Below, piece by piece: positions 1,475-49,279 of a DNA stretch of 64,000 bases. The stretch comes from a virus (Duplodnaviria > Caudoviricetes), in the IMG/VR virus record IMGVR_UViG_3300028887_000067, positions 1-64,000 of that record, one strand, 5' to 3'. Every line of letters begins with the position of its first letter. The first letter of the stretch is position 1. Both the position numbers and the translations under genes were made by a program. Below the pieces are notes generated by a model. That model saw only the letters and a list, made by a program, of their open reading frames with translations, was not told where the DNA came from and ran no database searches.

Positions 1475-2428
1475 CTACGCCCTCACCCCGCCGTGGCTGG
1501 CCCTGTATTTGGCGAGCGCGGCCTGCTTGAGCATCTTCATGCGGTCGCTGGACTTGGCGCTGGTGCCCAGCAGCTTGGAAATGGCGTCCTCGGTGTTCCT
1601 GTTGACGACGAACCCGCTGTTGCTGGACAGGAACTGGCTGACGCCCTGCGACCCGCCCTTGCGGTACGCGTCGATGGCGCCGGTGACGACCTCGATGCCC
1701 TCGATCGTCGCGGGGGAGGTGTCCTTCTCCTTGGAGATGTACTCCCTGTAGAGACGCAGGTCGCGGGCGAGCTTGTCGAGACCCGCCATGATCTCGGTCT
1801 TCGCCGACTGGTCGGCGGCGATGTCCTGGTCGCCAGTGAGCCACACGGCGAAGTTGGGGTCCGACCCACGGCGGAGGTTGCCGGCCATGTTGGAGATGTA
1901 GGCGTCGATATACTCGCGTGCCTTGGCTTCGTCGGACATGTAGGAGCCGATGTCGATGAGCTGGTACTGGTTGAAAGTCTTGGCTATGTCGACGACGAGC
2001 TCGCCCACCACGCGGGCGGTTGGGACAGTGTCGTAGGCCTTGGCTTCCTTCTCCCCCGCCTCGTTGGCATAGGCGTCGTCGTCCTTGAGGACGTTGTCGT
2101 TGTCGCCGGCGTCGTAGTCCTCGTCCGACTGGAAGGACCGGGCGTGGTTCTCGCGGTTGATGATGTCGTCCACGGGGCGCACTTCGGGATCGGCGTCGTC
2201 CTGCGGGGCCGTGCCCATCACCGGTTCGGGCTCGGGCTCGGGTTCGGCAAGTTTCTTCTCGGCGTCGGCCTGCTTCTTCGTCTTGCCGCCGACCACAGCG
2301 CCGGCGTTTCCGAACAGGCCCTCGAACATCGGGTTGATCCCGCATATGTCGGCGAGCTTCGACACGCACTCGACCTGCGCCTTCGTAAGGCCGAGTTCGT
2401 CCCTCGTGATAAATTCAGTAGCGTTCAT
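1475..2428 (-). CDS. Late acidic protein with PEPEPEP linker; putative internal head protein
   Basis: Phage-typical GC3 bias; ATAAACT at 2459-2465; N-terminal leader ending MFEG. Confidence 0.7.
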   Translation of the reverse strand: MNATEFITRDELGLTKAQVECVSKLADICGINPMFEGLFGNAGAVVGGKTKKQADAEKKLAEPEPEPEPVMGTAPQDDADPEVRPVDDIINRENHARSFQSDEDYDAGDNDNVLKDDDAYANEAGEKEAKAYDTVPTARVVGELVVDIAKTFNQYQLIDIGSYMSDEAKAREYIDAYISNMAGNLRRGSDPNFAVWLTGDQDIAADQSAKTEIMAGLDKLARDLRLYREYISKEKDTSPATIEGIEVVTGAIDAYRKGGSQGVSQFLSSNSGFVVNRNTEDAISKLLGTSAKSSDRMKMLKQAALAKYRASHGGVRA

Positions 2429-2458
2429 AAAAAATAAACCCGTGGTATGTTTCCCACA

Positions 2459-2465
2459 AGTTTAT
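2459..2465 (-). promoter_or_regulatory. Late promoter box ATAAACT
   Basis: Recurrent motif, about 30 nt upstream of ATG 2428. Confidence 0.7.
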
Positions 2466-2489
2466 CAGTTTGCCGGATGTACCGAGCGG

Positions 2490-3023
2490 TCACGCGGTGG
2501 TCGCGGAGGCGGACGAGTCGGAACCCGTACCGTACCCGGCGTCCACGCCGTTGATGGTGGCGGCTCCCGGACCCGCGAAAGTGGCCTTGGTGCTGAAGCC
2601 GGAAACGGGTTCGCTCCGGAGCGAGGCGACGGACATCTCGGGCGGGTTGGGGAGGTGTTCCTTGGCCTTCTTGATGAGACCCGTGACGCTCGCGTCGGAC
2701 TTCATGTGGATCCGTTGGGGCCGGTACTCCTCACGGAAGGCCTCCTGCGTTTCCTCGTGCGCGTCCCTCGTGCACCGTCCGCCGCACGGCTCGTAAGTGT
2801 AGGGGGTCTGGACGTCGGGCTGGGACGTGGAGCTCGCCGTGGGGACCTGCTTCATGATGTTCTTGTAGTTCGGGAACGGCGTGACCGCGCTCATCGAGGA
2901 AGGCACGGTGAGGTGCCTCGAGTAGTCGGCCTCGCAGAGCGACTCGTACAGGTCGGTCGCCGCCTTGACCCACGGCTTGCCCCGGTCGAGGCAGGCAAGC
3001 ATCTTTCCGAACGGGGAACCCAT
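2490..3023 (-). CDS. Hypothetical protein (177 aa, start MGSPFGKM); putative internal head protein
   Basis: ATG lies 2 nt past the stop of the upstream gene; leader ends LYESLCEA. Confidence 0.65.
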   Translation of the reverse strand: MGSPFGKMLACLDRGKPWVKAATDLYESLCEADYSRHLTVPSSMSAVTPFPNYKNIMKQVPTASSTSQPDVQTPYTYEPCGGRCTRDAHEETQEAFREEYRPQRIHMKSDASVTGLIKKAKEHLPNPPEMSVASLRSEPVSGFSTKATFAGPGAATINGVDAGYGTGSDSSASATTA

Positions 3024-3024
3024 G

Positions 3025-3369
3025 CTAGGCCTCCGGCGGCTGTTCCGTGCCGTCCTGCTGTTCGGCCTGCTCGGCCTGCTCGGACGCGGCGTTGGCCTTG
3101 GCGGCAACCTCGGCGTTGACCTCGGTCAGGTTCTCGTTCGCCTCGTCGGCGGACTTCTTGGCCTCGGCGACCTTCGCCATGTCGCCCTGCAGTTCGTTGA
3201 TAGACTCGTCGGGGAGCTTGTTGAGATCGACCTGGTTGATGGTGGTCTCGTTGGGCTCCAGCGTGCTCTCGTACAGCTTCTTGGCGGTCTCGGCAAGTCC
3301 TTCGAGGTGCTTGGCGGAACACATCTTGTCCACCGACTCGAAGAACAACTTCTTCCTCTGTTCGTCCAT
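3025..3369 (-). CDS. Acidic helical late protein (114 aa, start MDEQRKK); putative prohead/internal protein
   Basis: ATAAACT at 3396-3402 places the start at ATG 3369; FFES and LYES motifs. Confidence 0.7.
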   Translation of the reverse strand: MDEQRKKLFFESVDKMCSAKHLEGLAETAKKLYESTLEPNETTINQVDLNKLPDESINELQGDMAKVAEAKKSADEANENLTEVNAEVAAKANAASEQAEQAEQQDGTEQPPEA

Positions 3370-3395
3370 TTGGAAAACCCGTTGTAGTTTCCCGT

Positions 3396-3402
3396 AGTTT
3401 AT
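3396..3402 (-). promoter_or_regulatory. Late promoter box ATAAACT
   Basis: Recurrent motif upstream of ATG 3369. Confidence 0.65.
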
Positions 3403-3404
3403 CA

Positions 3405-3998
3405 TTACGACACAAGCAGGAGGCGGACTTCCGTGCAGTCCGAATCGACCATTTCCCGCACGGCCTCCAGCAGTCCCTTGTTCTTCAGGGCCCTGGCATA
3501 CATCTCGTCTTCGGCAACGAGGTCATATATGAGTTCCTTGGACACGGGGAAGGTGAGCTGCGAGGCGAGCTTGGCTTGCGCCGTCTTCTTGCTGTCCGAC
3601 TCATCTACCCGCCATTCGTCGCCCACGGAGAGTTCGCCGTCGTACTCGCGGCTCGCCGTCATACCCAGCGCCGTCAGTGTCGTGACGAATCGGTCGCGGT
3701 GCCTGTCGATAGCGTCGTCGACGCGTTTCTCGTAGTCGGCAAGCCCGATAGCACGGAACGACGGGACAATCTGCCTGTCGCCTTCCATGGACTTACTGTA
3801 TATGCAGCGGACGCGTTCCGACAGGGAGTCGATCTCGACGGGGTCGAACGAGTTGAACCTGTCCATGTCAGTCCAGTCACCCTTCTCCCCGACCATGTAG
3901 TCACGGAAATACCCCGTGACGGAATCTTCTCCGGCGAGCTTCCATTCAGTCGCGCCCTTCGGGCGGTACTCGACATACAGGGACACGAAAAAACTCAT
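3405..3998 (-). CDS. Hypothetical protein (197 aa)
   Basis: Tightly packed operon ORF with GGAGG RBS. Confidence 0.8.
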   Translation of the reverse strand: MSFFVSLYVEYRPKGATEWKLAGEDSVTGYFRDYMVGEKGDWTDMDRFNSFDPVEIDSLSERVRCIYSKSMEGDRQIVPSFRAIGLADYEKRVDDAIDRHRDRFVTTLTALGMTASREYDGELSVGDEWRVDESDSKKTAQAKLASQLTFPVSKELIYDLVAEDEMYARALKNKGLLEAVREMVDSDCTEVRLLLVS

Positions 3999-3999
3999 A

Positions 4000-5031
4000 C
4001 TATCCTCCAGCGAAAACTGACACGCCGAGCGCGGTGCCCAGCATCAATACAAGCACGGCAAGCGCTATGACCATTACGCGCAGGATGCGCACCGACTTGC
4101 CCATCTTGTCGAACGCGGTCTGTGTCTCGTCCATCAGCGAGGAGAACTGCGTCGTGATATTGTTGACCGAGGACTCGAGCTGCGTCACCCTGACGGGAAT
4201 CATGTCCCGGTAGGCGGGGGGCTTGGACGCCTCCACGGCAATTTCCATCGCCTTGGCCACGTCGGCCTTGGTCTTCTCGAGGTCGGCGGCCACCTTTCCG
4301 GCCGAGTGCATAGCGTTGATTCCGTATGACTGGGCGAGCTCGGCGCTCTTCCAGAGGAGTTCCATCTCCTGCCCCAGCTCGTCATCCTCGACGTCGGAAT
4401 CGTTACCATCATCGTAGGAGTCGACCTCGCTTCGTTTCATCTCCTGCTTGTAGAACCGTGCGAAGTCTTTGGCGAAATGGTCGACGGTCTCCTGTTCCGC
4501 CTCGGACAGCTCGAAACCGGTCGCTGCGCCGTCGATGAGGTTCGCCATCTTGACGTCGGAGGTCGCCGTCAGGCTGGGCTTGAAGTAGTGCACCGTGTAC
4601 CGCTCGTCACCGCTCGACCCGTCCCGCTCGAATCCGTCGAACAGCTTTTCCGGGATCTGCACGTTGAGCGGGGCGACAATGGCAAGGCGGTAGTCGATCC
4701 CCATCCCGTCCAGCAAGCCCGTGACTGCATCGGAGCCCACGATGGTGATATCGCCCATGTCGACGTCCGTCTTCATCGAAAGGCCCACGGCGAGCCTCAC
4801 GGCCGGCTCCTCGCCATCGGCGACGAACAGGCGCGACGTGTATATGCCGAACTCCATCGGGGGGAGCCCGTTGTAAATCCTTGGGATAATCGACTTCGGG
4901 AGGACGACGAGCCTATGAGACAGAACGGGTTCCAGCCCGTCACACTGGAACACCTTGTTGGGGAGGGCGAGAATGTTTCTCCGAATCAGGTTTCCGTCCC
5001 CGTTAACCGCTAGAAGAACGTCAATATTCAT
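4000..5031 (-). CDS. Hypothetical protein with coiled coil and C-terminal transmembrane helix (343 aa)
   Basis: C-terminal ILRVMVIALAVLVLMLGTALGVSVF; helical region before it. Confidence 0.8.
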   Translation of the reverse strand: MNIDVLLAVNGDGNLIRRNILALPNKVFQCDGLEPVLSHRLVVLPKSIIPRIYNGLPPMEFGIYTSRLFVADGEEPAVRLAVGLSMKTDVDMGDITIVGSDAVTGLLDGMGIDYRLAIVAPLNVQIPEKLFDGFERDGSSGDERYTVHYFKPSLTATSDVKMANLIDGAATGFELSEAEQETVDHFAKDFARFYKQEMKRSEVDSYDDGNDSDVEDDELGQEMELLWKSAELAQSYGINAMHSAGKVAADLEKTKADVAKAMEIAVEASKPPAYRDMIPVRVTQLESSVNNITTQFSSLMDETQTAFDKMGKSVRILRVMVIALAVLVLMLGTALGVSVFAGG

Positions 5032-5474
5032 CCTTTTTTAACCTCGAATGAAATATAGCTGAGTTCGTACTTCGTGACCACGCCGTCCTTGTCCTCGCCG
5101 ATACCGACCGGGAAGAAGTACAGCTTGTCGAGACCATGTGTCGCTATTGCGTCGGACAGCAGCTTCCCGTACTTGTTCTTCCGGATGCGGAACGACATGA
5201 CGAGTACGTCCCCGTCGATACGTGCGCCGACGGATTCCGCCATCGCGTGCTCCGGCCACGACTGGAACGGCGGTATTCGCTTGAAGTTGCGCTCGACCGG
5301 CGAGACTTCCTCGATACTGAACTTCTTGCCGCCCGCTATGTCGAGAATGATTTTCTCGCCGATGGAGCGGGGGTAGACGCACTTCGACCCGTTCTCGTAG
5401 ACCGAGTCGAACTTCATCACCCTGACGTCCACCACCTGTGGCTCACTTCTTTGCTTCGTTCTTTGCTTCGACAT
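5028..5474 (-). CDS. Hypothetical protein (148 aa)
   Basis: ATGA overlap with the downstream gene. Confidence 0.75.
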   Translation of the reverse strand: MSKQRTKQRSEPQVVDVRVMKFDSVYENGSKCVYPRSIGEKIILDIAGGKKFSIEEVSPVERNFKRIPPFQSWPEHAMAESVGARIDGDVLVMSFRIRKNKYGKLLSDAIATHGLDKLYFFPVGIGEDKDGVVTKYELSYISFEVKKG

Positions 5475-5760
5475 CCTTCATCCACCTCTCGACAAGGTCG
5501 GGGCGACCGAGCGACCTGACCAGATCCTCCATAAGGCGACGCCGTCCGGACCAGTACTTCCCTATGGCCATCAGGAACCCGCGAACCTGCGGGCCGATGT
5601 CCCTGTCGTTGATGACGGACATGTACTTGGAGTGCATGTCCCTGCACCCGTTCCAGTCGGCGAACAGCTTCTTCTCGTCAGCCATCATGGAATCGTACAG
5701 CTCGCGCTGCTTGTCCGTGAACGACCTGATTATATCCTCTATCTTCGGCGCCTTGCTCAT
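5443..5760 (-). CDS. Hypothetical protein (105 aa, start MSKAPK)
   Basis: ATG 5760 overlaps the stop of the upstream small ORF. Confidence 0.7.
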   Translation of the reverse strand: MSKAPKIEDIIRSFTDKQRELYDSMMADEKKLFADWNGCRDMHSKYMSVINDRDIGPQVRGFLMAIGKYWSGRRRLMEDLVRSLGRPDLVERWMKDVEAKNEAKK

Positions 5761-5864: not shown

Positions 5865-5883
5865 TTCTGTAGTATCTCCTTAG

Positions 5884-6804
5884 TTAATCGTCGTGCAAGG
5901 CAGCATCAAGATGAGCGACCGCCTTCAAAAAGTTAACGATCTTGTATTCAGAATCCGGATTGCAATGGAAATCGCACGAGAATTTCGGATAATGTATACT
6001 GACTTGGCTGTCTGGCGACAAACACGGCATGATATTGAATGTTATATCAAGCCGTTTGTCAAAAAATCTGAGCGATGCCGTCGGTTCTCTGTACACTATC
6101 CAGCCGGTCATATTTTCAAGGTCGATCTGCTTGCCGTACTCAGCTTGGTGGTTATAGGTGCGTATCTGCTGCTCGACCACAACCTTGATAGCCTCGGCTA
6201 CCTTGAGCTGGGCTTCTAACTTATTCTTGGCCCGTACCTCCGACTTGAGAGCACGGTCTAGGATATCGGCGACGGCTTGAACCGAGTCGGCTTCATCGTT
6301 GAACCGGCCGTTTTTAAGCTTGCGCTTTATAGCGCCGAGAGAGACCAAGTCGATCTGCTTGTCCTGTCCATTGCTAGTGTCCGAACCGTCCAAGTGGATG
6401 TGGACTCTCTGGGTGAACCGATCCTTGAGAAAGTCGTCCGTCTTATTACATCCGTGGACCAGCCCTAAATAGAAACGGTGAAGCAGCTCGTTACTAGAGC
6501 GGGTGAGAAAGAACGGAACCAATTCTTGAGACGTGATGTAACAGTTGTCCGCGTTCTTGACCACCGGGAGTGTCTTGGTCACATAGAAAATCGACGACCG
6601 CAAGTCGTTAAGGAACTTGCCGTTGATCTGCATCCCATAAATGTCACGGAAAAGCGTGGCACGGAAAATCGAGTAACCAGACTCGGTTACCATAAGACGA
6701 TCAATTACAAGCTTGTAATATACATCGAATTTCTTGTTACCGAAGTAACTGACATAGCAAACCGAAGTAAGCGGATATTCGCGTTCTGGAATCATACAAA
6801 CCAC
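5884..6804 (-). CDS. Hypothetical protein (about 306 aa)
   Basis: Long ORF in operon, no motif recognised. Confidence 0.8.
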   Translation of the reverse strand: MVCMIPEREYPLTSVCYVSYFGNKKFDVYYKLVIDRLMVTESGYSIFRATLFRDIYGMQINGKFLNDLRSSIFYVTKTLPVVKNADNCYITSQELVPFFLTRSSNELLHRFYLGLVHGCNKTDDFLKDRFTQRVHIHLDGSDTSNGQDKQIDLVSLGAIKRKLKNGRFNDEADSVQAVADILDRALKSEVRAKNKLEAQLKVAEAIKVVVEQQIRTYNHQAEYGKQIDLENMTGWIVYREPTASLRFFDKRLDITFNIMPCLSPDSQVSIHYPKFSCDFHCNPDSEYKIVNFLKAVAHLDAALHDD

Positions 6805-8384: not shown

Positions 8385-9113
8385 TTAGCGGTCGGAGTCG
8401 ATGACGTTCGTCACCTTGGGCTGGAGTTCCGGGATGAAGTTGTAGACTTCCCAGTGGCCCGGGGAGAAGTGGCGCTTCGCCCAGTCGGCGGCCTGCGTAG
8501 GGTTGTCGAACGGGATGGACGGGTTCACCGGTTCCCAGTGACCCTTGGCGTAGGTTTCGTCCTTACCGGTGAACTCGTTCTTCCGGTGTCCGATAAACTC
8601 GCGCACCCAGCGCTGTCCGGACACCTTGCAGACGGCGCTAGGGAACATCTTCTTGACCTCGTCGAACGGTAGCCGGCGGAGCTCGTTGGCCTTCTCGTAG
8701 GCGAGCTGCGTGTTGTAGTCGTCCTGGGTCTGCAGGTTCTCCTCACGGTAGCGATTCTGGGTGTCGTTGATCAGGCCCTGGCGACGCTGGAAATCGTCGA
8801 GGCTCAGACGTTTGCGGTCGAACTCGGGGTGGGCGCTGTCGATTTCCTCGGCGGCGGACTTGACCGACTTGAACTCGGGCAGCTTGCGCTGTACCTGCTC
8901 CGGCTCCGGCTCGGGTTCCGGCTCTGGGGTGAACACCTTGCCGTCCTTGGATGTAAGCTTGATGCCGGGCTTCAGCTTGGCCAGCACATACGGGTCGATT
9001 GCCTCGCAATACAGGGAGAAACCGGCCTTCAGGTAGGGAACCGCCTCGGGACAACCGCACTTTGCGCAGGCGCTCTCGATGAACGTGTTGAATTGCTTCT
9101 GTTCTTCGGTCAT
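8385..9113 (-). CDS. Late protein with conserved N-terminal leader and PEPEPEP linker; putative internal head protein
   Basis: Leader FIESACAKCGCPEAVPYLKAGFSLYCEA is homologous to that of 43098..44099; ATAAACT at 9141-9147. Confidence 0.75.
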   Translation of the reverse strand: MTEEQKQFNTFIESACAKCGCPEAVPYLKAGFSLYCEAIDPYVLAKLKPGIKLTSKDGKVFTPEPEPEPEPEQVQRKLPEFKSVKSAAEEIDSAHPEFDRKRLSLDDFQRRQGLINDTQNRYREENLQTQDDYNTQLAYEKANELRRLPFDEVKKMFPSAVCKVSGQRWVREFIGHRKNEFTGKDETYAKGHWEPVNPSIPFDNPTQAADWAKRHFSPGHWEVYNFIPELQPKVTNVIDSDR

Positions 9114-9140: not shown

Positions 9141-9147
9141 AGTTTAT
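9141..9147 (-). promoter_or_regulatory. Late promoter box ATAAACT
   Basis: Upstream of ATG 9113. Confidence 0.7.
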
Positions 9148-9247
9148 ACCTCAGAGCCAGATTTTTCCGGCCATACCGCAAGAAAAACTCTTATCGGCGA
9201 GCATCAATTTTAATATATTTTTGGCGGACACCAACAAAGAAGGCAAT

Positions 9248-9931
9248 ATGGCTTTTATCAAAACTCACTTCCGTATGCTGTACATGACAGCGTTCATCCT
9301 GTTCACAATCGCGTTCACAGTCGCCATGCCCGACGGCCACACCTCGATGTGGTTCGCCCTATTGACTGCCCTGCTGGGCAACGTGGCGACCGTCATGTTC
9401 GCACAGAAGAACATCTGGGCATACCTACCCAGTTTCGCGTTCAACTTCATGTACATGTACATCTGCTGGGAGAGCCGTCTATGGCTCGAGTTCGGCGAAT
9501 ACATCTTCTATAACGTGACGATGGTCTACGGCTTGTACAAGTGGTACAAGTGTCTCGAACCCGACAGGACCCACGTCGTCCCGAAAAGGCTTTCCCCCAA
9601 GGCATGGGTCATTTCGATTATCGCCACCATCGTCCTTACGGCGGGGTTCGGCACGTTCGACAAGTTCGTGCTTGACGGCGCTGTCCCGTATATGGACGCG
9701 TTCAGCATCAGCTTTACAGTAATCGCCCAGATTCTCATCATCACCTGCTACCGCGAACAGTGGTTCTTCTGGTTCGTGCTCGACGCGGTCTCCATCGTCA
9801 CCTTCGCGATGATCGGCGAATGGGCAATGGTGGCCATGTACGTCTGCTGGTTCCTCAACACGATCTACGGCTGGTACGAATGGTCCTATACCGAGAAGAA
9901 GGCCGTAGTCGCCGGTACTGCGGAGGCTTAG
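9248..9931 (+). CDS. pnuC: Nicotinamide riboside transporter PnuC
   Basis: Multi-TM protein with YGLYKW, PYMDAF, AQIL...REQWFFW...D and N.IYGWYEW PnuC motifs; adjacent to nadR. Confidence 0.9.
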   Translation: MAFIKTHFRMLYMTAFILFTIAFTVAMPDGHTSMWFALLTALLGNVATVMFAQKNIWAYLPSFAFNFMYMYICWESRLWLEFGEYIFYNVTMVYGLYKWYKCLEPDRTHVVPKRLSPKAWVISIIATIVLTAGFGTFDKFVLDGAVPYMDAFSISFTVIAQILIITCYREQWFFWFVLDAVSIVTFAMIGEWAMVAMYVCWFLNTIYGWYEWSYTEKKAVVAGTAEA

Positions 9932-11056
9932 ATGGGACCGATTGTTATAAAGGATTATGGCCTTGTGCTCGGCTCCTTCAGTCCGATGCACACCGGCCAT
10001 CTTGACCTAATCATGCTGGCCAAGAAGATGTGCCGCCGTGGCGCAATCATCGCCGTCTGCGGGCTCGACGGCGACCGCGGCACTAAGGTAGGCCTCCCCA
10101 TAGAGCGCAGGTACTCCATTATCAAGTCAATGTTCAAGAATGACCCCCTTGTCAAAGTCATCTACATGAAGGACAACGACATCGGCATCGCCGGCTACAA
10201 CGACAAGTGGGGGGAATGGCTGGAAGCGCTCAGCAAGGAAATGGTAGCCTGTGTTCATGGGGCGGACAAGGTATCGAAGAGCATGTGCAAGAAGATGCTC
10301 TGCCAGACGACCCTCTTTACCGGCGAACCAGCCTACAAGAAGGCCATCGACGAACTCAACCTCGGCATTAACGCATTTGTTCTGAGTCGCGACTTGAACA
10401 AGATTTCTGCAACCAGTATTCGCAAGCACCCGATGACGCACTGGAATGAAATCATTGGCCCCGCGTACAGGTCGGCATTTGCCAAACGTGTCCTGATTAT
10501 CGGGACCGCTTCCGAAAGAAAGTCTACGCTCACCATGGACCTCGCCCGTTATTTCGACGCCGACTACAGCGAGGAGTACGGCCACGAAGTCATCGCCGAG
10601 AAGACCAGCAAGTGCGCGAAACCCGACGACACGCAGCTTACCTACAATGATTTTATCAATTTTCTTGACGTGCAACTCGAGAAGAACTCCACCTGCGACA
10701 AGAAGTTGAAGATTTGCGACAGCGACGCAATGACGACACTCATGTACGCGAAGTACTATTCGACGGACGACAGGTATCTCATCACCGAGGCCGACTACGC
10801 GGAGCTTGAAAAGCACGCGTCTTTCCTGAAATACGACCTCATATTCGTGCTACCCCCTAAGAAGGACAGCTGGGTACAGGACGGGTGCAGGGATTGTCTC
10901 ACGAACAGCTTCGAGGACAGGCAGAAAATGTACCAGATATTGATGAAACTTATTGGCCAGCATTACTGCACTGAAGATATCGTGTACCTTAATGGTACTT
11001 ACCTCGACAATTTCATCCAGGCCCGAGACACACTCAAGCAGTTGCTGTCGGATTAA
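9932..11056 (+). CDS. nadR: NadR-like NMN adenylyltransferase / ribosylnicotinamide kinase (no HTH)
   Basis: GSFSPMHTGH (HxGH), ISATSIR, P-loop GTASERKST, EEYG, CDSDAMTT, WVQDGCR. Confidence 0.9.
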   Translation: MGPIVIKDYGLVLGSFSPMHTGHLDLIMLAKKMCRRGAIIAVCGLDGDRGTKVGLPIERRYSIIKSMFKNDPLVKVIYMKDNDIGIAGYNDKWGEWLEALSKEMVACVHGADKVSKSMCKKMLCQTTLFTGEPAYKKAIDELNLGINAFVLSRDLNKISATSIRKHPMTHWNEIIGPAYRSAFAKRVLIIGTASERKSTLTMDLARYFDADYSEEYGHEVIAEKTSKCAKPDDTQLTYNDFINFLDVQLEKNSTCDKKLKICDSDAMTTLMYAKYYSTDDRYLITEADYAELEKHASFLKYDLIFVLPPKKDSWVQDGCRDCLTNSFEDRQKMYQILMKLIGQHYCTEDIVYLNGTYLDNFIQARDTLKQLLSD

Positions 11057-13541: not shown

Positions 13542-13916
13542 ATGAACGCCGAATTTTACAATTGCCTCAACAAGTCCAAGACGCTCGAAAACGCGTCACA
13601 CGTCGAGAAGATCAAGGACATCTATCTGATGAGCGAGAAGGTCGCCCAGCTGGAAAGCGCAGGGAAAACCGACGACCGAGCCGAGGCGTTCTTCCCCAAC
13701 GGTTCCGTGCGTTGCACCCGGTTCTCCGACGGGATCTTCGTCGAGGCGTCCGCCACCGGCACCCGCAACATGTACGGGACGGTCGGCATCATCAGCTCCG
13801 GAAACCTCAAGGAGGCGCTGGCCGCCGGAAAGTCCGCGCTGGACAACGACGCCGTGATGGAAAGCATGTTCGGCCAGTTCACCCGCAACGCCGAAAAGAC
13901 CCCGGAGGCCGTGTAA
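13542..13916 (+). CDS. Late protein (124 aa); putative processed head protein
   Basis: GAGGT RBS, late box; QLES, FVEA and VMES motifs. Confidence 0.7.
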   Translation: MNAEFYNCLNKSKTLENASHVEKIKDIYLMSEKVAQLESAGKTDDRAEAFFPNGSVRCTRFSDGIFVEASATGTRNMYGTVGIISSGNLKEALAAGKSALDNDAVMESMFGQFTRNAEKTPEAV

Positions 13917-40630: not shown

Positions 40631-40632
40631 AC

Positions 40633-43097: not shown

Positions 43098-44099
43098 TTA
43101 CAGGAACCAGCCAAACGAATTAGAGCGCTCTTCAGAGCGTTTGTCGTTGTATCTATCAAAATTCTGCAAATTCGGGTCACCCGGATGCGCACGGCGCTCA
43201 TTGTAGAAATCATCTGCTATCTCGTGGTCGCCCAGCCGCATACGGGTAGGTACGTACGCATAACCAATCGTACGCGTTTCCGTTTGGTCTATGCCATGCG
43301 GATCGCTTCTGTGATCAAGCACTTTAGTGAAGTTCAGCTTAGTCATCAAACTATCAATCATATCGACATCGGTATCATCTGGCCCGGTTGCGTTCGACGC
43401 CACAACTGTCGTAAACACAAATCCTTCATCGCCATCACGGACATCCATGCTATGATATGCGTTCCAGCCCATATTCTGAGCAAAAGTCTCAATCTTCTTG
43501 ACGAGTTCCTCCGGAATTAGCTTACGGTTCTTTTCGGCGGCGTATGAAGTTCGGTTATAACGTTCGGTACGATTTTCCGCACGCTCAGCCGGTTTCATAT
43601 TCCACTCGGGGTCATTTTCCACGGACGCGCCGGCAACCCTTGTTTTATCCAGCTTGAACGCGTGAACGTCGTAATACTTTCGCCGTGCATCATCGACATA
43701 GAACGCAACCACGTACATCGTTGGCGTATCGGCAAGCACTATCTTATCGGTCTCGTCTTTATAATAATCTTTTTTAGACTTTAGCCAAGCCACGGATTCT
43801 CTGCGGTCACCATCGCCGTCCTTGCTCCATAGCTTGATATCACCACTTTCCAGCCTTTGTGCGATATCAGACAACGTGATTTCGTTCGGATTTTTAAGCT
43901 GGTCCACCGGAACATTAAACAGTTTGTATTTCATCTCATATGAATCGGCCTCGTTGCGCAGCAAGTCGCCGGTATTGCTAAATGCGGCTTCCAAGTACAG
44001 GCTAAATCCCTCCTTGAGCGAGGGAAGCACCTCCTTGCAGCCGAGCTTTTCGCAAACGCCTTCCATGAAGGCAACATATTCCTGTGCATTCTTTTCCAT
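43098..44099 (-). CDS. Late protein with conserved N-terminal leader; putative internal head protein (333 aa)
   Basis: Leader FMEGVCEKLGCKEVLPSLKEGFSLYLEA is homologous to that of 8385..9113. Confidence 0.75.
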   Translation of the reverse strand: MEKNAQEYVAFMEGVCEKLGCKEVLPSLKEGFSLYLEAAFSNTGDLLRNEADSYEMKYKLFNVPVDQLKNPNEITLSDIAQRLESGDIKLWSKDGDGDRRESVAWLKSKKDYYKDETDKIVLADTPTMYVVAFYVDDARRKYYDVHAFKLDKTRVAGASVENDPEWNMKPAERAENRTERYNRTSYAAEKNRKLIPEELVKKIETFAQNMGWNAYHSMDVRDGDEGFVFTTVVASNATGPDDTDVDMIDSLMTKLNFTKVLDHRSDPHGIDQTETRTIGYAYVPTRMRLGDHEIADDFYNERRAHPGDPNLQNFDRYNDKRSEERSNSFGWFL

Positions 44100-44109: not shown

Positions 44110-44859
44110 TTAACTTAAATCTGTCATCATCATCGGCTGAGCGGACTGGGCCTTCAGTTCTTCCATCAATCGCTTCCACTCTTCGAGGCCGTCGTTGTAA
44201 ATCTGTTGCCCGTTCACCTTGCCGCCGCCCGGAAGAGGCATATCGTCCTTCTTCAAGATCCTACCGAGCTGAATTTCGGCACGGGCGAGCGCCATATCCT
44301 GGAATAGCGGGTTGGCGAACACCTCGTACTTCTTCGCCTTGACATAGACCGTGGCAATCGCCACGCGGTCGGACTTCGGCGTCGGATATACGCGGAGAAT
44401 GTGCTGTTGCGGGTGCAGCTTGATGTTGTACTGCGTACCCACCAGCTTCTTGACGTCCTGCAGGTAACGCAAGGCGCCGGAATAGGTAATAAGATCGAAC
44501 TGCCCGAGTCCGCCGAGTCCGGCTCCGCCCACGCCCATCAGGGACTCGCCCGGACCAACGTCCCATGCCATCATCGGGCTAAACGTGTTTCCGTATGACG
44601 GGGACACGTCTACCACCTCCATAACCTCGTCGGGCACCCTGTACTGGATGACGCCTTCCTTCAATCGCAAAACCATAGCGTCCTGGTAGGACGCCTCGTC
44701 CTGATTGATACGATAGAACCAGTTGAGGGTGTCGTTCACGGCCATGTGCAGGTGACCGAGGCCGTTACGTTCCTCGACGACCATCTCGATCTCGGTACAC
44801 GGGTAACCGAGCATCGCCTTGATCTTCTCAACCATGTCATCAGTCGTGATTATCTGCAT
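44110..44859 (-). CDS. gp13: Neck protein, T4 gp13-like
   Basis: IKAMLGYPCTEIEM N-terminus; LGRILKK..MPLPGGGKVNGQQIY C-terminus. Confidence 0.88.
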   Translation of the reverse strand: MQIITTDDMVEKIKAMLGYPCTEIEMVVEERNGLGHLHMAVNDTLNWFYRINQDEASYQDAMVLRLKEGVIQYRVPDEVMEVVDVSPSYGNTFSPMMAWDVGPGESLMGVGGAGLGGLGQFDLITYSGALRYLQDVKKLVGTQYNIKLHPQQHILRVYPTPKSDRVAIATVYVKAKKYEVFANPLFQDMALARAEIQLGRILKKDDMPLPGGGKVNGQQIYNDGLEEWKRLMEELKAQSAQPMMMTDLS

Positions 44860-44869
44860 ATTGCCTTAC

Positions 44870-45367
44870 CTACGCATTGAACTGCTGATACTTGTACAGT
44901 ATCGTCGTCATGGTCTCGTCGAAGTCAGCAAAAATGTTCTTGACCCCTTCCGAGAATTTCGGGTTCTTTTCGACCGCATTCTTCATATTGTCGTTGATGG
45001 ACTTCAGCAGGCCCACAACAGCCTTGTCGTCAAACTTGACCGACCTCGGCGTGTCGGGAAACTCCTTGTCACACGGCTTGCCTGTCAGGGACATGTACGT
45101 CTCGGCAAGCTTGTCGCCGGTGTCCCTGCAAAGGTCGTACGCCTCGTTGAGAAGGGTGTGCTTGTTCATCGTGTCGACATTCCAGTGAATCTTGTTGAGC
45201 ACGTTGGCCTCGACAAGAAGCCACAGGGCAAGTTCCTTCAGAGTCTCGTAGCCGTTGCCCTTGCCGTCGGCGGCCTCCAATTTCGGTGAAAACGCGGCTA
45301 TGACGCCGAGCGCCTTTTCCCCGCATACACGGAACACCGCTTCACAAAAAACCTTAAAAAACGACAT
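44870..45367 (-). CDS. Dps/ferritin-like protein with N-terminal leader
   Basis: IHWNV...H.LLNEAY...DKLAETY four-helix ferritin-like pattern; late box at 45393. Confidence 0.75.
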   Translation of the reverse strand: MSFFKVFCEAVFRVCGEKALGVIAAFSPKLEAADGKGNGYETLKELALWLLVEANVLNKIHWNVDTMNKHTLLNEAYDLCRDTGDKLAETYMSLTGKPCDKEFPDTPRSVKFDDKAVVGLLKSINDNMKNAVEKNPKFSEGVKNIFADFDETMTTILYKYQQFNA

Positions 45368-45392
45368 TCTGCCATCCGATCACTTTACAGGG

Positions 45393-45399
45393 AGTTTAT
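45393..45399 (-). promoter_or_regulatory. Late promoter box ATAAACT
   Basis: Upstream of ATG 45367. Confidence 0.7.
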
Positions 45400-45436
45400 A
45401 TCGTGCTATATTTAATGCAGAACAACGAGGTACCCA

Positions 45437-45835: not shown

Positions 45836-45867
45836 AATTCCACATAATAAGGTGATCTCCAATATTC

Positions 45868-45895
45868 AAAAGGCCCGCCGAACGGCGGGCCTTTT
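45868..45895. terminator. Bidirectional terminator
   Basis: AAAAGGCCCGCCG-AA-CGGCGGGCCTTTT. Confidence 0.88.
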
Positions 45896-45901
45896 CAGTA
45901 C

Positions 45902-46495: not shown

Positions 46496-46515
46496 AGGTT
46501 ACCTCCTAGCTCGAT

Positions 46516-46528
46516 AAATATAGTTTAT
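46516..46528 (-). promoter_or_regulatory. Overlapping ATAAACT and ACTATATTT boxes
   Basis: Minus strand ATAAACTATATTT. Confidence 0.6.
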
Positions 46529-46550
46529 GGATTTTTGTACGACCATAAAC

Positions 46551-46577
46551 AAAAAACCTACTGGTTTTCCAGTAGGT
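46551..46577 (-). terminator. Terminator
   Basis: Minus strand ACCTACTGG-AAAA-CCAGTAGGT-TTTTT. Confidence 0.85.
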
Positions 46578-46597
46578 AATAAGTTGTATTAAATAGA

Positions 46598-47044
46598 TTA
46601 AGCTTCTTCGGAAGCCGTATCCTCGACCTGAACCGCCTTCTTCTTACGGCTCTTCTTCACCGTCAGGACCAGCGATTCGCCAGCTTCCTCGCCAACGGAA
46701 ATGCCGTTCACGGGAGACTCGTCAGCCTTTACGAACGCATTGTACGCCTCGTCGGCCACCGCCTCGTCAAGAGCCGGGTCGGCCTTCGTTTCCGATTCCT
46801 CGACCTTCGGCGCGTTAGGGGTGAAGAACATAGGCGTTTCACCCAGATCATTGGTGAGACCCTTGATGTACGCCTCGTACTCGGACCTCAGCGAATCGAT
46901 AACGGTCTGGTCAACCGAACCGACCTGGAAAGCCTGCGTGGAGGCGGCCTTCTTCGCGTTAAGGCGGTTCATCACATCCTGGGCACCCGTCTCGCCGCGA
47001 GGCATCGTCTTGATAGTGGTAACTTTGAAATTGAGCATTGTCAT
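46598..47044 (-). CDS. Hypothetical acidic protein (148 aa)
   Basis: Variant box ATAAACA at 47082-47088. Confidence 0.75.
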   Translation of the reverse strand: MTMLNFKVTTIKTMPRGETGAQDVMNRLNAKKAASTQAFQVGSVDQTVIDSLRSEYEAYIKGLTNDLGETPMFFTPNAPKVEESETKADPALDEAVADEAYNAFVKADESPVNGISVGEEAGESLVLTVKKSRKKKAVQVEDTASEEA

Positions 47045-47073
47045 TTCCCATTTTATGGGGCGGATGCCCCTTG

Positions 47074-47295
47074 CTACTCTTTGTTTATACGGTGGGCCAT
47101 GCCAATACTCACAAGCACAGGCGTGTCGGGCCCGCCTGTAAGCTGCTTTTCGTACGTAACGTCCTCCAGATAGGCCTCCATCGGGCTCCTCTTCGGGATT
47201 TTAAGCTCCGTCTTCGGCAACTCGGGCATCGACTTGCGTAGCGCCTCATCGGCTTCCCTTCGCTTCTTCCCCAACAGGAACTCGATATCGCCCAT
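47074..47295 (-). CDS. Hypothetical protein (73 aa)
   Basis: TGATG coupling with gp15; AGGAG RBS. Confidence 0.65.
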   Translation of the reverse strand: MGDIEFLLGKKRREADEALRKSMPELPKTELKIPKRSPMEAYLEDVTYEKQLTGGPDTPVLVSIGMAHRINKE

Positions 47296-48902
47296 CAGCT
47301 CTCCTCCTTGGTCACCAAGGCCATCATCGTGTCAGAAAAGTTCGTCTTGACTCCGAACGCGCCCTTGTTTCCCTCGTCGTAGAGAACGAAGTAGAACGAA
47401 TAGATCGTGTCATTATCGCAAATGATCGGCTCGCTGACGAAACGGCGGAATTGCGTCGTCGTGTGGTATGCGAAATAAAGGCGCCCGTCCATGATTCCCC
47501 AGTCAAACCATACCTCGCCTGCCGGAATCACCGTGCCGTCAGACAACGTGACGTCGGCCGGGTTGTACAGATATTGGAAAACGGTGTCGTTCTGGTGCCT
47601 GAACTGCAGTACCGCCTTGAACGTGTAAGACTCGAGAATCTTCCCGTCCTTGTTGTCTCCGAACCAGTTAAGAATATTCGACCAGTCGGTCGCCGTAGCA
47701 TATCCGCCCGGCGCGAAAGAGCCGTTGCCCGGAGCCATGTCCGGAACAAATTCGCGAGCTTCGGCGTTCACGGCTACAAAATCGCGACCGAGACCGCTGT
47801 AATCCTTCTCCCGGTCGGAATCCTCGTCGAAATTAAGGTGAATCAGGTCGAACGACGGCACCTCGACAGGACGGGCGACATCGCCCACGACGACATCCTC
47901 CCATTTGTATACCGGAATAGGGTCGCCATCCACATCGGTAATATCTTCACCCAGCGAGTTCTTCAAGTTTCCCTTGTAGACAGGATTATAGCCGGCCCTC
48001 GCCTTGCCGTTGGCGCGACGCTTAGTAATGTCTTCGTCGGTATGCGGGGTCAGGTCAAGCGTCCGCATAGTCTCGTCCTTCCAGAACTCCTCGCCGTGCT
48101 CGTCGACACGACGTACAAGCGTCCTGGTAAATGTCTTGAGGAGGGACCACCCCTCGCGGATAGACGGCTCAACCGTCTCCCAGAGATGCTTCTTCTGCTG
48201 GGCGATTTCATCGGGATAGACAAACACCTGTATGGAATCCTGTATCTGGTCGCGCACGTTGAAATTCATCTGGGCATACTTGATTATTGCCGGAATCTCG
48301 TAAGGACGATGATACACTCCTCCGTGCGTCTCGATAGTATAGACACACTTGTAAAGCTGATACTCGTTGCTGGTATCGCTTTTTTCGTCATCGACGCTGC
48401 TAGACCAGTGCAAAGTAAAAGCAATCGGACGCTCGATTTCGGGCGCAAAATCCCATTCCTTAATCCTAACCGTGCGATACGTGTTGAAATACGGCTGAAT
48501 CTGCTCCTTCAAGTGGAAGAAGTCTGTTATGTTGTCTGCAAGAAGAGTCAATTCGAATGTGACGGACATCGGAGTCGGCTGAATGTCACGGATATACTTC
48601 TGCAACGGCGCGGACAGGATTTCCCGGGCGTAGGTAGGCTGGACCATATGCGACTCGTCGTGGCGGTCTTCAATGAACCTGAACCCCAGACAAGGTATAG
48701 CCATCGGTTCCTGCGCAGTTGCCGTAGACGCGACAAAGTTGGCAAAGTCGTCACTGTTGTGCGTATACAACGGCACGGCAACAGTCTGTGACTCGACTGA
48801 ACGATTCTGGTCCTCATAGCGGTTCACACGCAAGTTGTTGAACACGTCCATGATCGCAATCATAATCTTCTCAATTTCGCGAACGTAGTAATGCGGTGTC
48901 AT
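47295..48902 (-). CDS. gp15: Tail terminator / sheath stabiliser, T4 gp15-like, with long C-terminal extension
   Basis: YYVREIEK...VFNNLRV, VAVPL, PTPMSVTFEL...EQIQPYF. Confidence 0.8.
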   Translation of the reverse strand: MTPHYYVREIEKIMIAIMDVFNNLRVNRYEDQNRSVESQTVAVPLYTHNSDDFANFVASTATAQEPMAIPCLGFRFIEDRHDESHMVQPTYAREILSAPLQKYIRDIQPTPMSVTFELTLLADNITDFFHLKEQIQPYFNTYRTVRIKEWDFAPEIERPIAFTLHWSSSVDDEKSDTSNEYQLYKCVYTIETHGGVYHRPYEIPAIIKYAQMNFNVRDQIQDSIQVFVYPDEIAQQKKHLWETVEPSIREGWSLLKTFTRTLVRRVDEHGEEFWKDETMRTLDLTPHTDEDITKRRANGKARAGYNPVYKGNLKNSLGEDITDVDGDPIPVYKWEDVVVGDVARPVEVPSFDLIHLNFDEDSDREKDYSGLGRDFVAVNAEAREFVPDMAPGNGSFAPGGYATATDWSNILNWFGDNKDGKILESYTFKAVLQFRHQNDTVFQYLYNPADVTLSDGTVIPAGEVWFDWGIMDGRLYFAYHTTTQFRRFVSEPIICDNDTIYSFYFVLYDEGNKGAFGVKTNFSDTMMALVTKEES

Positions 48903-48919
48903 CGGCCAACCTCAAGTGC

Positions 48920-48926
48920 AGTTTAT
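48920..48926 (-). promoter_or_regulatory. Late promoter box ATAAACT (divergent pair)
   Basis: Upstream of gp15. Confidence 0.7.
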
Positions 48927-48936
48927 CACGAACATT

Positions 48937-48943
48937 ATAAACT
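48937..48943 (+). promoter_or_regulatory. Late promoter box ATAAACT (divergent pair)
   Basis: Upstream of ATG 48968. Confidence 0.7.
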
Positions 48944-48967
48944 GAACAAAAAGCGACCGGAGAAACC

Positions 48968-49279
48968 ATGGAACCCGCCACTGACGCACAGAAACTCTAC
49001 ATCTATCGACTCGGCAAACATAAGGACGATACCAACTCCGCCGTCGTCGAGGGAATCACCAAGGCCTTCGGCCTGGTAAACGGCATCGACACCACCCTGA
49101 CTGAGTCCGACCAGAGCAAGATGGACGCGTTCGACTTCCTCGAGACCGACCGCAACGGGCAAGACCCGAGCGCTTACCTCGAGGCGCTGACCGAAAACGT
49201 CCTGAAACAGACAAAACCCGAAGACTTCGGAACCATCAGGAAGGCCCTGAACGAATACAGGTCGTTCCTCGGAAAATAG
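48968..49279 (+). CDS. Late protein (103 aa); putative processed head protein
   Basis: GGAG RBS, late box; VVEG, LTES and YLEA motifs. Confidence 0.7.
   Translation: MEPATDAQKLYIYRLGKHKDDTNSAVVEGITKAFGLVNGIDTTLTESDQSKMDAFDFLETDRNGQDPSAYLEALTENVLKQTKPEDFGTIRKALNEYRSFLGK

Follow-up and report, generated by a model that had tools for sequence, protein, structure and literature searches.

A 38-residue N-terminal leader on unrelated cargoes in an uncultured jumbo phage: a putative capsid-targeting propeptide

Leader genes, promoter box and head-maturation genes in the window

The window analysed here comprises the first 64,000 nucleotides of the IMG/VR virus record IMGVR_UViG_3300028887_000067 (Duplodnaviria; Caudoviricetes) and contains two genes, 8385-9113 and 43098-44099, whose products begin with a related leader (Table 1). 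An earlier note on this DNA had described a 38-aa leader common to both proteins, which were unrelated after it, and BLASTP bore this out: residues 1-38 aligned with 18/38 identical positions (E 3e-10), and no significant similarity was detected past residue 38. The open reading frames and peptide strings named in that note lay where it had placed them. The DNA encoding the two leaders was about 60% identical, with numerous synonymous differences and a switch of serine codon family (TCC/AGC), indicating that the conservation is at the protein level and does not reflect a recent DNA copy. The predicted cleavage sites (marked by arrows) were FIE13↓S and YCE37↓A in the 8385-9113 leader and FME13↓G and YLE37↓A in the 43098-44099 leader. 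AF2 placed helices at residues 3-19 and 22-38 of the former and at 3-19 and 22-41 of the latter, all with pLDDT 90-98. A low-confidence stretch followed in both proteins (pLDDT below 50 at residues 45-60 of 43098-44099), so that in these models the leader is a confidently predicted helical hairpin with a floppy linker behind it. The cargo of 8385-9113 had no match in Pfam, PHROG or PDB folds; an Atlas structure search matched it to a 109-aa viral hypothetical family. Compared with its orthologue in genome G001, this protein was 61% identical in the leader versus 33% in the cargo.

Table 1. Features of the window relevant to the leader analysis (arrows, predicted cleavage points)
Feature	Position	Strand	Evidence or remarks
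Leader gene 1, 38-residue strict leader	9000..9113	-	BLASTP, HMM 79-91 bits, AF2
Leader gene 1, cargo, 204 aa	8385..8999	-	Pro-Glu repeat linker, long helix, beta domain
ATAAACT box of gene 8385-9113	9141..9147	-	27 nt upstream of start
Leader gene 2, 38-residue strict leader	43986..44099	-	BLASTP, HMM, AF2
Leader gene 2, cargo, 295 aa, no assigned fold	43098..43985	-	In hypervariable slot
Head-tail adaptor (neck) gene	44110..44859	-	PHROG 211, E 1e-14; co-oriented, directly upstream of 43098 gene
Looser candidate, DUF5856/Dps-like	44870..45367	-	FCE9↓A and KLE31↓A; PHROG 858, E 1e-8
ATAAACT box of 44870/neck/43098 gene string	45393..45399	-	
Looser candidate	1475..2428	-	MFE↓G, then Pro-Glu repeat linker; box 30 nt upstream
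Looser candidate	2490..3023	-	LCE↓A
Looser candidate, acidic 114-aa protein	3025..3369	-	FFE↓S and LYE↓S
Weak candidate	13542..13916	+	QLES; QLES/QFES in two genomes, no further support
Weak candidate	48968..49279	+	LTES at residues 44-47 of 103; LTES/LTEA in two genomes, no further support
Scaffold-like acidic helical protein (putative)	55489..56328	-	Five or six hydrophobic-x-E-[SA] strings
Prohead protease, T4 gp21 type (Peptidase_S77)	56330..57085	-	PF03420, 60.8 bits (cut-off 27); PHROG 207
Small core-like protein (putative), 59 aa	57082..57261	-	YIES and IMES
Major capsid protein, Gp23 family	59150..60652	-	PF07068, 212 bits, match from residue 59

Of the 70 copies of the heptamer ATAAACT, 58 had an ORF start no more than 60 nt downstream (mode 23-33 nt), compared with 30% for permuted 7-mers, and the heptamer headed baseplate wedge, head closure, sheath stabiliser and protease-operon genes. 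Judged from this distribution, it is a promoter-like box of structural genes. The earlier note had linked each of eight genes, the two above and six with looser N-termini, to such a late box, either its own or that of a co-transcribed gene, and this held. Genes 8385, 44870, 3025, 1475, 13542 and 48968 had the box 24-30 nt ahead of their starts, and genes 43098 and 2490 lay directly downstream of box-driven genes. For 3025, we took 3369 as the true start, since the ATG at 3405 shares nucleotides with the promoter box. Among the seven leader genes, four had a box of their own and the other three directly followed a co-oriented upstream gene, which was the neck gene in two cases. The identical box, at matching spacing, also preceded leader genes of G001 (two genes) and G003.

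Head-maturation genes in the same window carried similar sites, and the xE[SA] strings pointed out earlier in the protease, scaffold-like, small core and capsid proteins were present and conserved in orthologues. The protease belonged to the S77 type, its S80 assignment reaching only 15 bits, under the Pfam cut-off; RTES, LTES and LLES lay in its C-terminal tail and were conserved in the orthologue alignment. The capsid protein, about 30% identical to those of cultured T4-like phages, had an N-terminal propeptide with predicted sites VLE18↓S and LAE51↓A. Its residues 5-43 and 52-109 aligned to residues 5-42 and 81-138 of T4 gp23, placing LAE51↓A just ahead of the conserved mature N-terminus of T4 gp23, and relatives had LIE↓A and KFE↓S at this site. 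The acidic helical protein 55489..56328 had no family match and kept its motif sites in an orthologue only 30% identical; its position and composition suggest a scaffold role. A core role may be proposed for 57082..57261, which had no PHROG match and is the first gene behind an ATAAACT box at 57276-57282.

The leader family in related metagenomic phages

A profile built from seven leaders was searched against 1.84e9 (1.84 billion) protein cluster representatives and matched 175 of them at E<=1e-3, including 102 at E<=1e-10. Among the best 150 of the 175 representatives, the match began at residue 1 in 140, and in nine the leader was internal or terminal in a longer ORF, probably owing to read-through gene calls. 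BLASTP clustering divided the 133 cargoes of >=50 aa into at least 77 unrelated clusters, with 55 singletons; the search thus recovered the further cargo diversity for which the earlier note had suggested scanning with a leader HMM. Almost no Pfam match was obtained for 149 leader proteins, and the cargoes were mostly without a recognisable fold or family. They were generally acidic (median pI 4.85; 83% below pI 6). The hydrophobic-x-E↓small motif occurred in them at 4.4 per 1000, equal to the shuffled expectation, and was absent from the two window cargoes, which makes the cargoes unlike a degraded scaffold.

The leader consensus was MNxxQKxYxAFMESVCxxFNCPEALPALKEGFKAFCE↓A. M1, C16, L28, G31 and E37 were invariant in all 115 ungapped leaders, and F11 (113), F32 (112), E13 (110) and C36 (107) were nearly so, as was C21; the three cysteines of the leader (C16, C21 and C36) are therefore all invariant or nearly invariant. 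Position 14 was S in 93 and G in 14 of these leaders, and position 38 was A in 80, S in 22, T in 7, G in 4 and E in 2. Since positions 11 and 35 were hydrophobic, E13 and E37 each have a hydrophobic P3 and a small P1', which gives two predicted hydrophobic-x-E↓small sites per leader. At the E37 site, P3 was F/L/Y/M/I and P1' was A/S/T/G in 113/115, as read from sequence only. The variant P0003 had lost E37 and carried a duplicated YLES site 11 residues further on. The family was found solely in uncultured jumbo phages, on contigs reaching 392 kb, and a tblastn search of one leader against 50,697 deposited phage genomes returned nothing at E<=1.

Cargo exchange was evident at the slot after the neck gene. 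Between the present genome (G000) and G001, the neck gene was 98% and the ATPase 68% identical, and the cargo was unrelated: G001 had a homologous leader on an unrelated 173-aa cargo. In P0002/P0003, a near-identical leader preceded a third cargo. The syntenic cargo slot of G002 had a diverged leader-like N-terminus, suggesting that leaders may drift beyond the reach of the HMM.

The six looser N-termini

The earlier note had grouped all eight genes into one leader family; this grouping did not survive. Leader HMMs built from 2, 5, 7 and 146 sequences detected two strict copies only in a six-frame search of the 308-kb genome, and the six looser N-termini stayed at noise level (2-4 bits, E 1-8 among 882 N-termini, with the 7- and 146-leader models). 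They had no profile similarity to one another, and when the leader region of 3025 was used in a word search, the 3025..3369 protein itself was the only match. Their sole common feature was a hydrophobic-x-E-[ASG] tetrapeptide, which chance alone would put in roughly 15% of N-termini, as judged from the non-late ones. The modular, Cys-containing address tag proposed in that note was accordingly supported for the strict leader, with its diverse cargoes, residue-1 position and invariant Glu, but not for the six looser leaders, which fell outside the family.

It is quite possible, if somewhat short of likely, that these six are ordinary N-termini with a common tetrapeptide, belonging to no family and unprocessed, save perhaps for one or two head-core proteins. 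The missing profile similarity, the chance frequency of the motif in non-late N-termini and the self-only word search favour this, as does an enrichment that falls short of significance when only the present genome is considered (1.6-fold, p 0.08; gene level 26% vs 16%, p 0.13). In contrast, when four related genomes were pooled, the first 45 residues of ATAAACT genes contained the motif at 62/6030 vs 4.7 per 1000 in protein bodies, a 2.2-fold enrichment (p 2.6e-7), with a gene-level frequency of 37% vs 15% (p 1e-8). Control motifs (reversed, Asp, Gln, Lys, non-small-P1' and non-hydrophobic-P3) were flat in the pooled genomes, and genes other than ATAAACT genes had no enrichment at their N-termini. 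Conservation in orthologues also argues against chance. Both strings of 44870..45367 (Pfam DUF5856, 29.4 bits, under its cut-off) were conserved in G001 and G002, the 2490..3023 site read LCEA/LCEA/LCEG across three genomes at 34-66% identity, and MFEG of 1475..2428 was kept in G001. Drift past HMM reach, as the G002 slot suggests, could further hide a relationship. Taken one by one, the looser N-termini are candidate propeptides only.

A putative capsid-targeting tag and its alternatives

The T4 capsid-targeting sequence (CTS) is an N-terminal tag of roughly 10 residues (MKTYQEFIAE) on diverse internal proteins and is removed by gp21 (PMC8442874, PMC3012670, PMC5694885). Like the CTS, the leader is N-terminal on otherwise unrelated, fast-evolving proteins and terminates in hydrophobic-x-Glu plus a small residue; its genes are late and in few copies per genome, the cargoes differ between related phages, and the phage has a protease of the S77 type and, on its Gp23-type capsid protein, a matching site. 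The first 13 residues of the leader (M-N-x-x-Q-K-x-Y-x-A-F-M-E) show a loose likeness to the CTS that goes no further than resemblance, and no sequence homology to the T4 CTS was detectable. The leader differs in its length (38 versus about 10 residues), its predicted helix-loop-helix fold, its three conserved Cys and its two predicted cleavage sites. P3 is Tyr/Phe/Leu in the leader and Leu/Ile in the T4 cleavage motif, and the leader cargoes are acidic, whereas T4 internal proteins are highly basic. On balance, the leader is probably a capsid-targeting propeptide of the T4 CTS kind, longer and folded; by analogy, it would likely work as the CTS does without being its homologue.

Under this interpretation, leader genes would be transcribed late, together with structural genes, and the hairpin would dock the fused protein on the assembling scaffold core or the procapsid inner face. 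A gp21-type S77 protease would then cut after Glu37, and probably after Glu13 too, splitting the tag into two small peptides, which would exit the head. The cargo would stay in the head alongside the DNA and possibly pass into the host cell when infection begins. All four steps, from docking and cleavage to retention and injection, are ones that we infer; packaging and ejection draw indirect support solely from the late/structural promoter context. If loading requires nothing but the tag, the cargo could be exchanged freely, which would explain why a genome has one or a few leader genes, each with its own fast-evolving cargo. Against this interpretation count the low information content of the motif and its differing P3, the missing similarity to the T4 CTS or any of the deposited phage genomes, a stronger conservation of leader (with its cysteines) than cargo that would also suit a domain kept in place, the nine non-N-terminal leaders among the best 150 of 175 and the acidity of the cargoes, which makes co-packing with DNA less obviously favoured than for the basic T4 proteins.

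Longer propeptides occur in other giant phages. In SPN3US, phiKZ and 201phi2-1, head and ejection proteins have propeptides of 80-160 residues with several internal cleavage motifs (A/S/G-x-E); these propeptides are considered prohead-targeting, and the paralogues gp53 and gp54 have an identical 15-residue N-terminus (PMC5694885, PMC10052503). The present phage resembles these in being a jumbo phage with a T4-related protease and a predicted propeptide exceeding the T4 CTS in length. However, the SPN3US and phiKZ N-terminus is common to paralogues, whereas the leader is common to unrelated cargo families, and the capsid protein here is of the T4-type Gp23 family. A head propeptide of the phiKZ/SPN3US type, for which an S80-type protease would be expected, was rejected given the 38-residue length, the hydrophobic P3 and the S77 protease.

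For docking, the scaffolding protein of phage P22 offers a mechanistic analogy only: its C-terminal helix-turn-helix binds coat and loads foreign cargo into P22 capsids. Like the leader, this domain is a short helical hairpin (about 30-40 residues), and it suffices to dock a fused protein inside the procapsid. It differs in being C-terminal, unrelated in sequence and not known to undergo proteolytic removal, and P22 is not known to have an S77 protease.

The hairpin might instead be a permanent N-terminal docking or oligomerisation domain, perhaps metal- or redox-dependent via its Cys, through which proteins with different C-terminal domains would converge on a single shared partner (a host target, a phage hub protein or the virion surface, for example), an arrangement that recalls polymorphic toxin systems with their constant trafficking domains. 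The invariant C16, L28 and G31, the near-invariant F32, C21 and C36, the confident prediction of an independently folded hairpin and the stronger conservation of leader than cargo between orthologues would all fit a functional domain that is never removed. We nevertheless regard this as distinctly improbable. Homology stops exactly at the invariant Glu plus Ala/Ser with its hydrophobic P3, the second site at E13 is conserved, and both sites match those in the phage's capsid propeptide, scaffold-like protein and protease. In addition, the predicted disordered linker directly follows the hairpin, the leader genes lie within late/structural transcription units, and P0003 offers its duplicated YLES in place of E37. 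It is extremely improbable that the common N-terminus is a functionless recombination by-product reusing one 5' cassette (promoter, ribosome-binding region, first codons): at a conserved locus the exchange of cargo begins exactly where the leader ends, and box and spacing are also common to four of the seven leader genes, but the two window copies have diverged in DNA and switched serine codons, three leader genes are without their own promoter, and the five residues still invariant in 115 diverse leaders indicate purifying selection on the peptide.

A further-reaching extension of the capsid-targeting interpretation appears rather unlikely: the hairpin would be more than a linear cleavage tag, namely an autonomous, Cys-bearing capsid-docking domain with flanking protease sites, through which small acidic proteins of more than 75 families are packed and injected, many of them counter-defence proteins, for instance DNA mimics. 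If this were true, the leader would provide a T4-type capsid with roughly double the genome size of T4 with a portable loading tag, and the HMM of the leader would be a search key to a large unexplored set of injected effectors belonging to uncultured rumen-type jumbo phages.

A shared N-terminal leader on unrelated proteins

The two leader genes of the window encode proteins of 242 and 333 aa which, as the earlier note had proposed, align only over their first 38 residues (18/38 identical, E 3e-10); the remainder of each protein is referred to here as the cargo. At the DNA level, the two leaders were only ca. 60% identical; synonymous changes were numerous, and one serine differed by a TCC/AGC switch. 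These differences excluded a recent DNA duplication of the leader; the conserved entity is the leader peptide, not its DNA. Six-frame HMM searches identified exactly two copies in the whole 308,245-bp IMG/VR-type record (G000; GC 53.7%, CheckV completeness 81%), whose initial 64 kb form the window.

Locus searches of viral contigs with both full-length leader proteins gave no match, nor did a tblastn search with one leader against 50,697 deposited phage genomes. The one approach that worked was the use of the two-leader alignment as query, which retrieved three related contigs and brought the set to seven leaders in four genomes (two in G000, three in G001 of 355 kb, and one each in G002 of 198 kb and G003 of 21 kb). 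A seven-leader profile compared with 1.84 billion representative proteins matched 175 clusters at E ≤ 1e-3 and 102 at E ≤ 1e-10, and the match began at residue 1 in 140 of 150 representatives among the matches listed. Across 115 ungapped leaders, M1, C16, L28, G31 and E37 were invariant, and F11 (113), F32 (112), E13 (110), C36 (107), A34 (98) and C21 (97) were nearly so; position 38 was Ala in 80, Ser in 22, Thr in seven, Gly in four and Glu in two. Cargoes with 50 or more residues numbered 133 and formed 77 BLASTP clusters, including 55 singletons. The proposal of a modular leader had been staked on the leader HMM finding additional cargo diversity, and with at least 77 cargo families among the matched clusters it clearly survived this test. 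Pfam searches of 149 family members found almost nothing (two zinc ribbons, two DUF6926), and PHROGs and Pfam together, applied to eight candidate proteins and the 149 members, assigned no family to leader or cargo. Sampled members came from metagenome sources only, on contigs of up to 392 kb, and were called 'hypothetical protein' where named; for one further member on a 453-kb contig (P0189), NCBI was also among the sources, with no protein name. The leader is real, widespread and unannotated.

Some family members depart from the standard arrangement. In P0002 and P0003, two proteins added by word search, a leader nearly identical to that of the 43098 gene precedes an unrelated 380-aa cargo, and the last ten leader residues are tandemly duplicated within residues 29–49 (KEGFSLYLEA, then KEGYKAYLES), cleavage motif included; in P0003, Asp replaces E37 and the second YLES is retained. 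In nine of the 150 listed representatives (P0024, P0025, P0036, P0050, P0061, P0067, P0153 and the cluster mates P0196 and P0199), the leader is internal to a longer ORF or forms its extreme C-terminal part; it invariably begins with its own Met and is often preceded by L-G-E-S-V. A viral-contig scan for P0024 gave no match. Since at least one of these clusters also holds stand-alone leader-plus-cargo forms (199–202 aa, beginning at the leader Met), read-through gene calls, perhaps across a recoded stop, are the likeliest cause; the alternative is genuine fusion proteins in which the tag is internal or C-terminal.

Comparison between relatives indicated cargo exchange at a fixed position. In both G000 and G001, a leader gene follows a neck gene (98% identical) and precedes an ATPase gene (68% identical), and the cargoes in this slot are unrelated (295 and 173 residues after the leader, respectively). 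Between the orthologues 8385 and G001-81, leader identity was 61% and cargo identity 33%. In G002, this slot, directly after the neck gene, holds a gene for 105 aa with a leader-like N-terminus (…KKFNTF…LCEAV…VCFEG) below HMM significance, a sequence suggesting that leaders may diverge beyond detection.

The cargoes were strongly acidic, with a median pI of 4.85 (83% < 6, 5% > 8), compared with 6.0 for the proteome (33% > 8). The density of cleavage motifs in the cargoes equalled the shuffled expectation (107 observed vs. 104 ± 9), with none in the two window cargoes; scaffold-like cargoes destined for degradation were rejected on this basis. Foldseek searches of the PDB with both leader-protein models gave no match at E ≤ 0.001, a wide VIA-align search with the cargo folds returned generic long-helix matches only (Z ≤ 6.3), and a word search with the 43098 cargo region returned the query protein alone. 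The sole ESM Atlas match was between the beta domain of the 242-aa protein and a 109-aa viral hypothetical family.

Head module, protease sites and leader structure

The window encodes a head module of T4 type (PHROG, Pfam), together with neck, sheath-stabiliser, baseplate-wedge and head-closure genes. The capsid protein is ca. 30% identical at most to that of any deposited phage, and a megablast search of deposited phages with 8 kb of window DNA gave no match, placing the phage on a deep, uncultured branch of the T4 superfamily.

Features of the window and of related genomes (coordinates refer to the window unless a genome is named; ↓, predicted cut)
Feature	Coordinates	Strand	Annotation or site	Conservation
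Portal	61380-63083	-	PHROG 213	
Major capsid protein	59150-60652	-	Pfam Gp23, 212 bits	
Prohead protease	56330-57085	-	Pfam Peptidase_S77, 60.8 bits vs cut-off 27	
Scaffold-like acidic helical protein	55489-56328	-		
Leader gene, 242 aa	8385-9113	-		
Leader gene, 333 aa	43098-44099	-		
Homing/HNH-endonuclease-like gene, 528 aa	57388-58974	-	PHROG 3339, E 9e-115	
PnuC NMN transporter and NadR-like cytidylyltransferase plus AAA_28 kinase	9221-11056	+	PnuC: PF04973, 128 bits	
306-aa gene	5884-6804	-		84%-identical homologue, G001 44115-45074
Looser leader	44870 (first coordinate)		FCE↓A and KLE↓A	three genomes
Looser leader	3025 (first coordinate)		FFE↓S and LYE↓S	orthologues
Looser leader	2490-3023		LCE↓A	three genomes
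Looser leader	1475-2428		MFE↓G	orthologues
Looser leader	13542 (first coordinate)		QLE↓S	orthologues
Looser leader	48968 (first coordinate)		LTE↓S	orthologues
Gene after neck gene	G002 132872-133189 (locus L040)	+		
Two-site helical N-terminus	G000 202154-202933	-	…IYLEG…CYILNEG	also G001 260990-261763 (-)
Leader-like N-terminus	G001 223261-223761	-	LIEG	
Leader-like N-terminus	G003 5218-5703	+	LFEN	
Leader-like N-terminus	G002 109632-110210 (= L005 2407-2985)	-	LLEA	
METFR paralogues	G001 280117-283059	+		
METFR paralogues	G001 48955-52780	-		

Residues 5–43 of the capsid protein align to the T4 gp23 propeptide (5–42) and residues 52–109 to T4 81–138. V-L-A-E51↓A-A immediately precedes the latter conserved block and is L-I-E↓A and K-F-E↓S in two relatives; all three genomes share the V-L-E-S at residue 18. 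The scaffold-like protein carries five or six hydrophobic-x-E strings (LTES, KLES, CLES, RFES, SFES), which are in place in a 30%-identical orthologue, and RTES and LTES in the protease tail are kept in three of three genomes. The xES/xEA strings that the earlier note had quoted for the head proteins were present and conserved in the capsid, scaffold-like and protease orthologues, and the remaining quoted strings were all located at the positions given. Taken together, these strings suggest that the protease would follow the rule known from T4, in which hydrophobic-x-Glu is followed by a small residue. The leader terminates in that same motif.

AlphaFold2 models with family alignments predicted helices at residues 3–19 and 22–38/41 (pLDDT 90–98) in both window proteins, followed by a low-confidence linker (residues 45–60 in the 333-aa protein, a Pro-Glu repeat in the 242-aa protein). 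Spacing of the conserved hydrophobic residues (F11, V15 and F19; L25, L28, F32 and F35) is i, i+4, as in a packed hairpin. Glutamates 13 and 37, both conserved and at the surface, lie in a hydrophobic-x-E-small context (F-M/I-E13-S/G and F/L/Y-C-E37-A/S). A single metal site formed by the three cysteines was also considered; in an antiparallel hairpin turning at 20–21, however, C16 and C36 would be expected near opposite ends. PEPEPEPE linkers were observed right after the putative leaders of 8385-9113 (residues ~62–72) and 1475-2428 (~59–66), and also in G000 86140-86322, outside the window.

The promoter-like box ATAAACT, which resembles the T4 late promoter TATAAATA, occurs 70 times in G000, mostly with TT before it and R-C-G after it. 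For 58 copies, an ATG ORF of ≥ 50 codons starts within the next 60 nt downstream, most often at a distance of 23–33 nt; only 30% of permuted 7-mers are so placed. The genes behind it include the baseplate wedge, head closure, sheath stabiliser, protease operon and several giant tail genes, and it is from these that the box may be regarded as late. Of the seven leader genes, four are preceded by a box of their own at 25–28 nt; the other three directly follow a co-oriented upstream gene, namely the neck gene (G000, G001) or another leader-like gene (G002).

Several neighbouring genes differ from their surroundings. The endonuclease-like gene, between the capsid gene and the protease operon, has an AT-rich stretch upstream unlike its surroundings and probably represents a mobile element inserted into the head module. 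The PnuC/NadR-like genes adjoin the 8385 leader gene and are missing at the syntenic place in G001, so that they form an NAD-salvage pair which the G000 phage has gained. The 306-aa gene breaks synteny with G001, where its homologue lies elsewhere, and is possibly mobile.

Looser leaders and further propeptide candidates

The earlier note had also assigned six looser leaders to the same family, and this assignment did not hold: they had no detectable relation to the strict leader or to each other. No link between looser and strict leaders emerged from HMMs of two, five, seven and 146 sequences, from ranking on the N-terminus alone, or from an all-against-all comparison seeking proteins alike at the N-terminus but unrelated at the C-terminus, and a word search with the 3025 leader region returned the query protein alone. 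By sequence comparison, the six are not members of the leader family. The frames chosen for 1475-2428 and 2490-3023 proved to be the coding ones, as confirmed by orthologue matches; long shadow ORFs overlap both genes in other frames (window 1341-3400).

All six looser genes keep a hydrophobic-x-E-[ASG] string in their orthologues. The K-x-E form does not disqualify 44870, since the capsid site of G002 likewise reads K-F-E↓S. With the four genomes pooled, the motif was 2.2-fold more frequent in residues 1–45 of ATAAACT genes than in protein bodies (62/6030 positions vs. 4.7 per 1000, p 2.6e-7), and at the gene level it was present in 37% of box-driven genes vs. 15% of the rest (p 1e-8); both p values are optimistic, as orthologues are non-independent. 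Six control motifs were not enriched in the pooled ATAAACT genes, and other genes showed no enrichment either. In G000 alone, the gene-level proportions were 26% and 16% (p 0.13). Some of the six, most plausibly 44870, 3025, 2490 and 1475, are probably head-protein propeptides of separate origin, comparable to T4, where gp24, gp67, gp68 and Alt each have their own; 13542 and 48968 are weak candidates.

Other N-termini also drew attention. An ATAAACT-driven gene outside the window has a two-site helical N-terminus shared with its G001 counterpart and is a propeptide candidate. Three proteins in G001, G003 and G002 have differing leader-like N-termini followed by a common block, S-S/K-D-A-V…L…VG-x-N; the G002 gene lies directly upstream of a strict leader gene and the G003 gene ca. 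2 kb from one. Eight G001 paralogues share the N-terminus METFR-x-GTFETNSSS-x-H with divergent remainders, a separate shared-N-terminus family in which this stretch is probably a catalytic motif, not a tag.

A probable capsid-targeting propeptide

In T4, a capsid-targeting sequence (CTS) of ca. 10 residues, MKTYQEFIAE, is cleaved once and the internal protein is retained in the head (PMC8442874); the internal proteins of T-even phages are highly diverse, with the CTS alone conserved (PMC3012670). In giant phages, additional sites within longer propeptides are thought to aid fragment clearance (PMC5694885). We consider it probable that the strict leader serves, like the CTS, as a capsid-targeting propeptide and that the S77 protease removes it. 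The main rival explanation, in which the leader stays on its cargo as a permanent docking domain, appears unlikely. The principle of a conserved tag on variable cargo is the same as in T4 and is not new, having been established for T-even phages; propeptides that are long have also been described from giant phages. Compared with the T4 CTS, however, the leader has four times the length, a predicted fold, cysteines and two predicted sites; it heads acidic cargo and occurs in uncultured jumbo phages.

If the propeptide reading is correct, one 38-residue profile would mark capsid-internal proteins for a clade of uncultured 300–400 kb phages, whereas lists of such proteins normally come only from virion proteomics of cultured phages. 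At least 77 families that are almost devoid of Pfam matches, strongly acidic and swapped between close relatives at a fixed locus present the pattern expected of arms-race proteins that reach the host as infection begins, and would thereby provide a concrete list for anti-defence screening. One might guess at an anti-defence role from this acidity, the turnover and the analogy with T4. The CTS principle would also be widened: beyond linear tags of 10 residues, it would cover a folded hairpin cut at two sites, with a bearing on how cargo docks to a T4-type scaffold.
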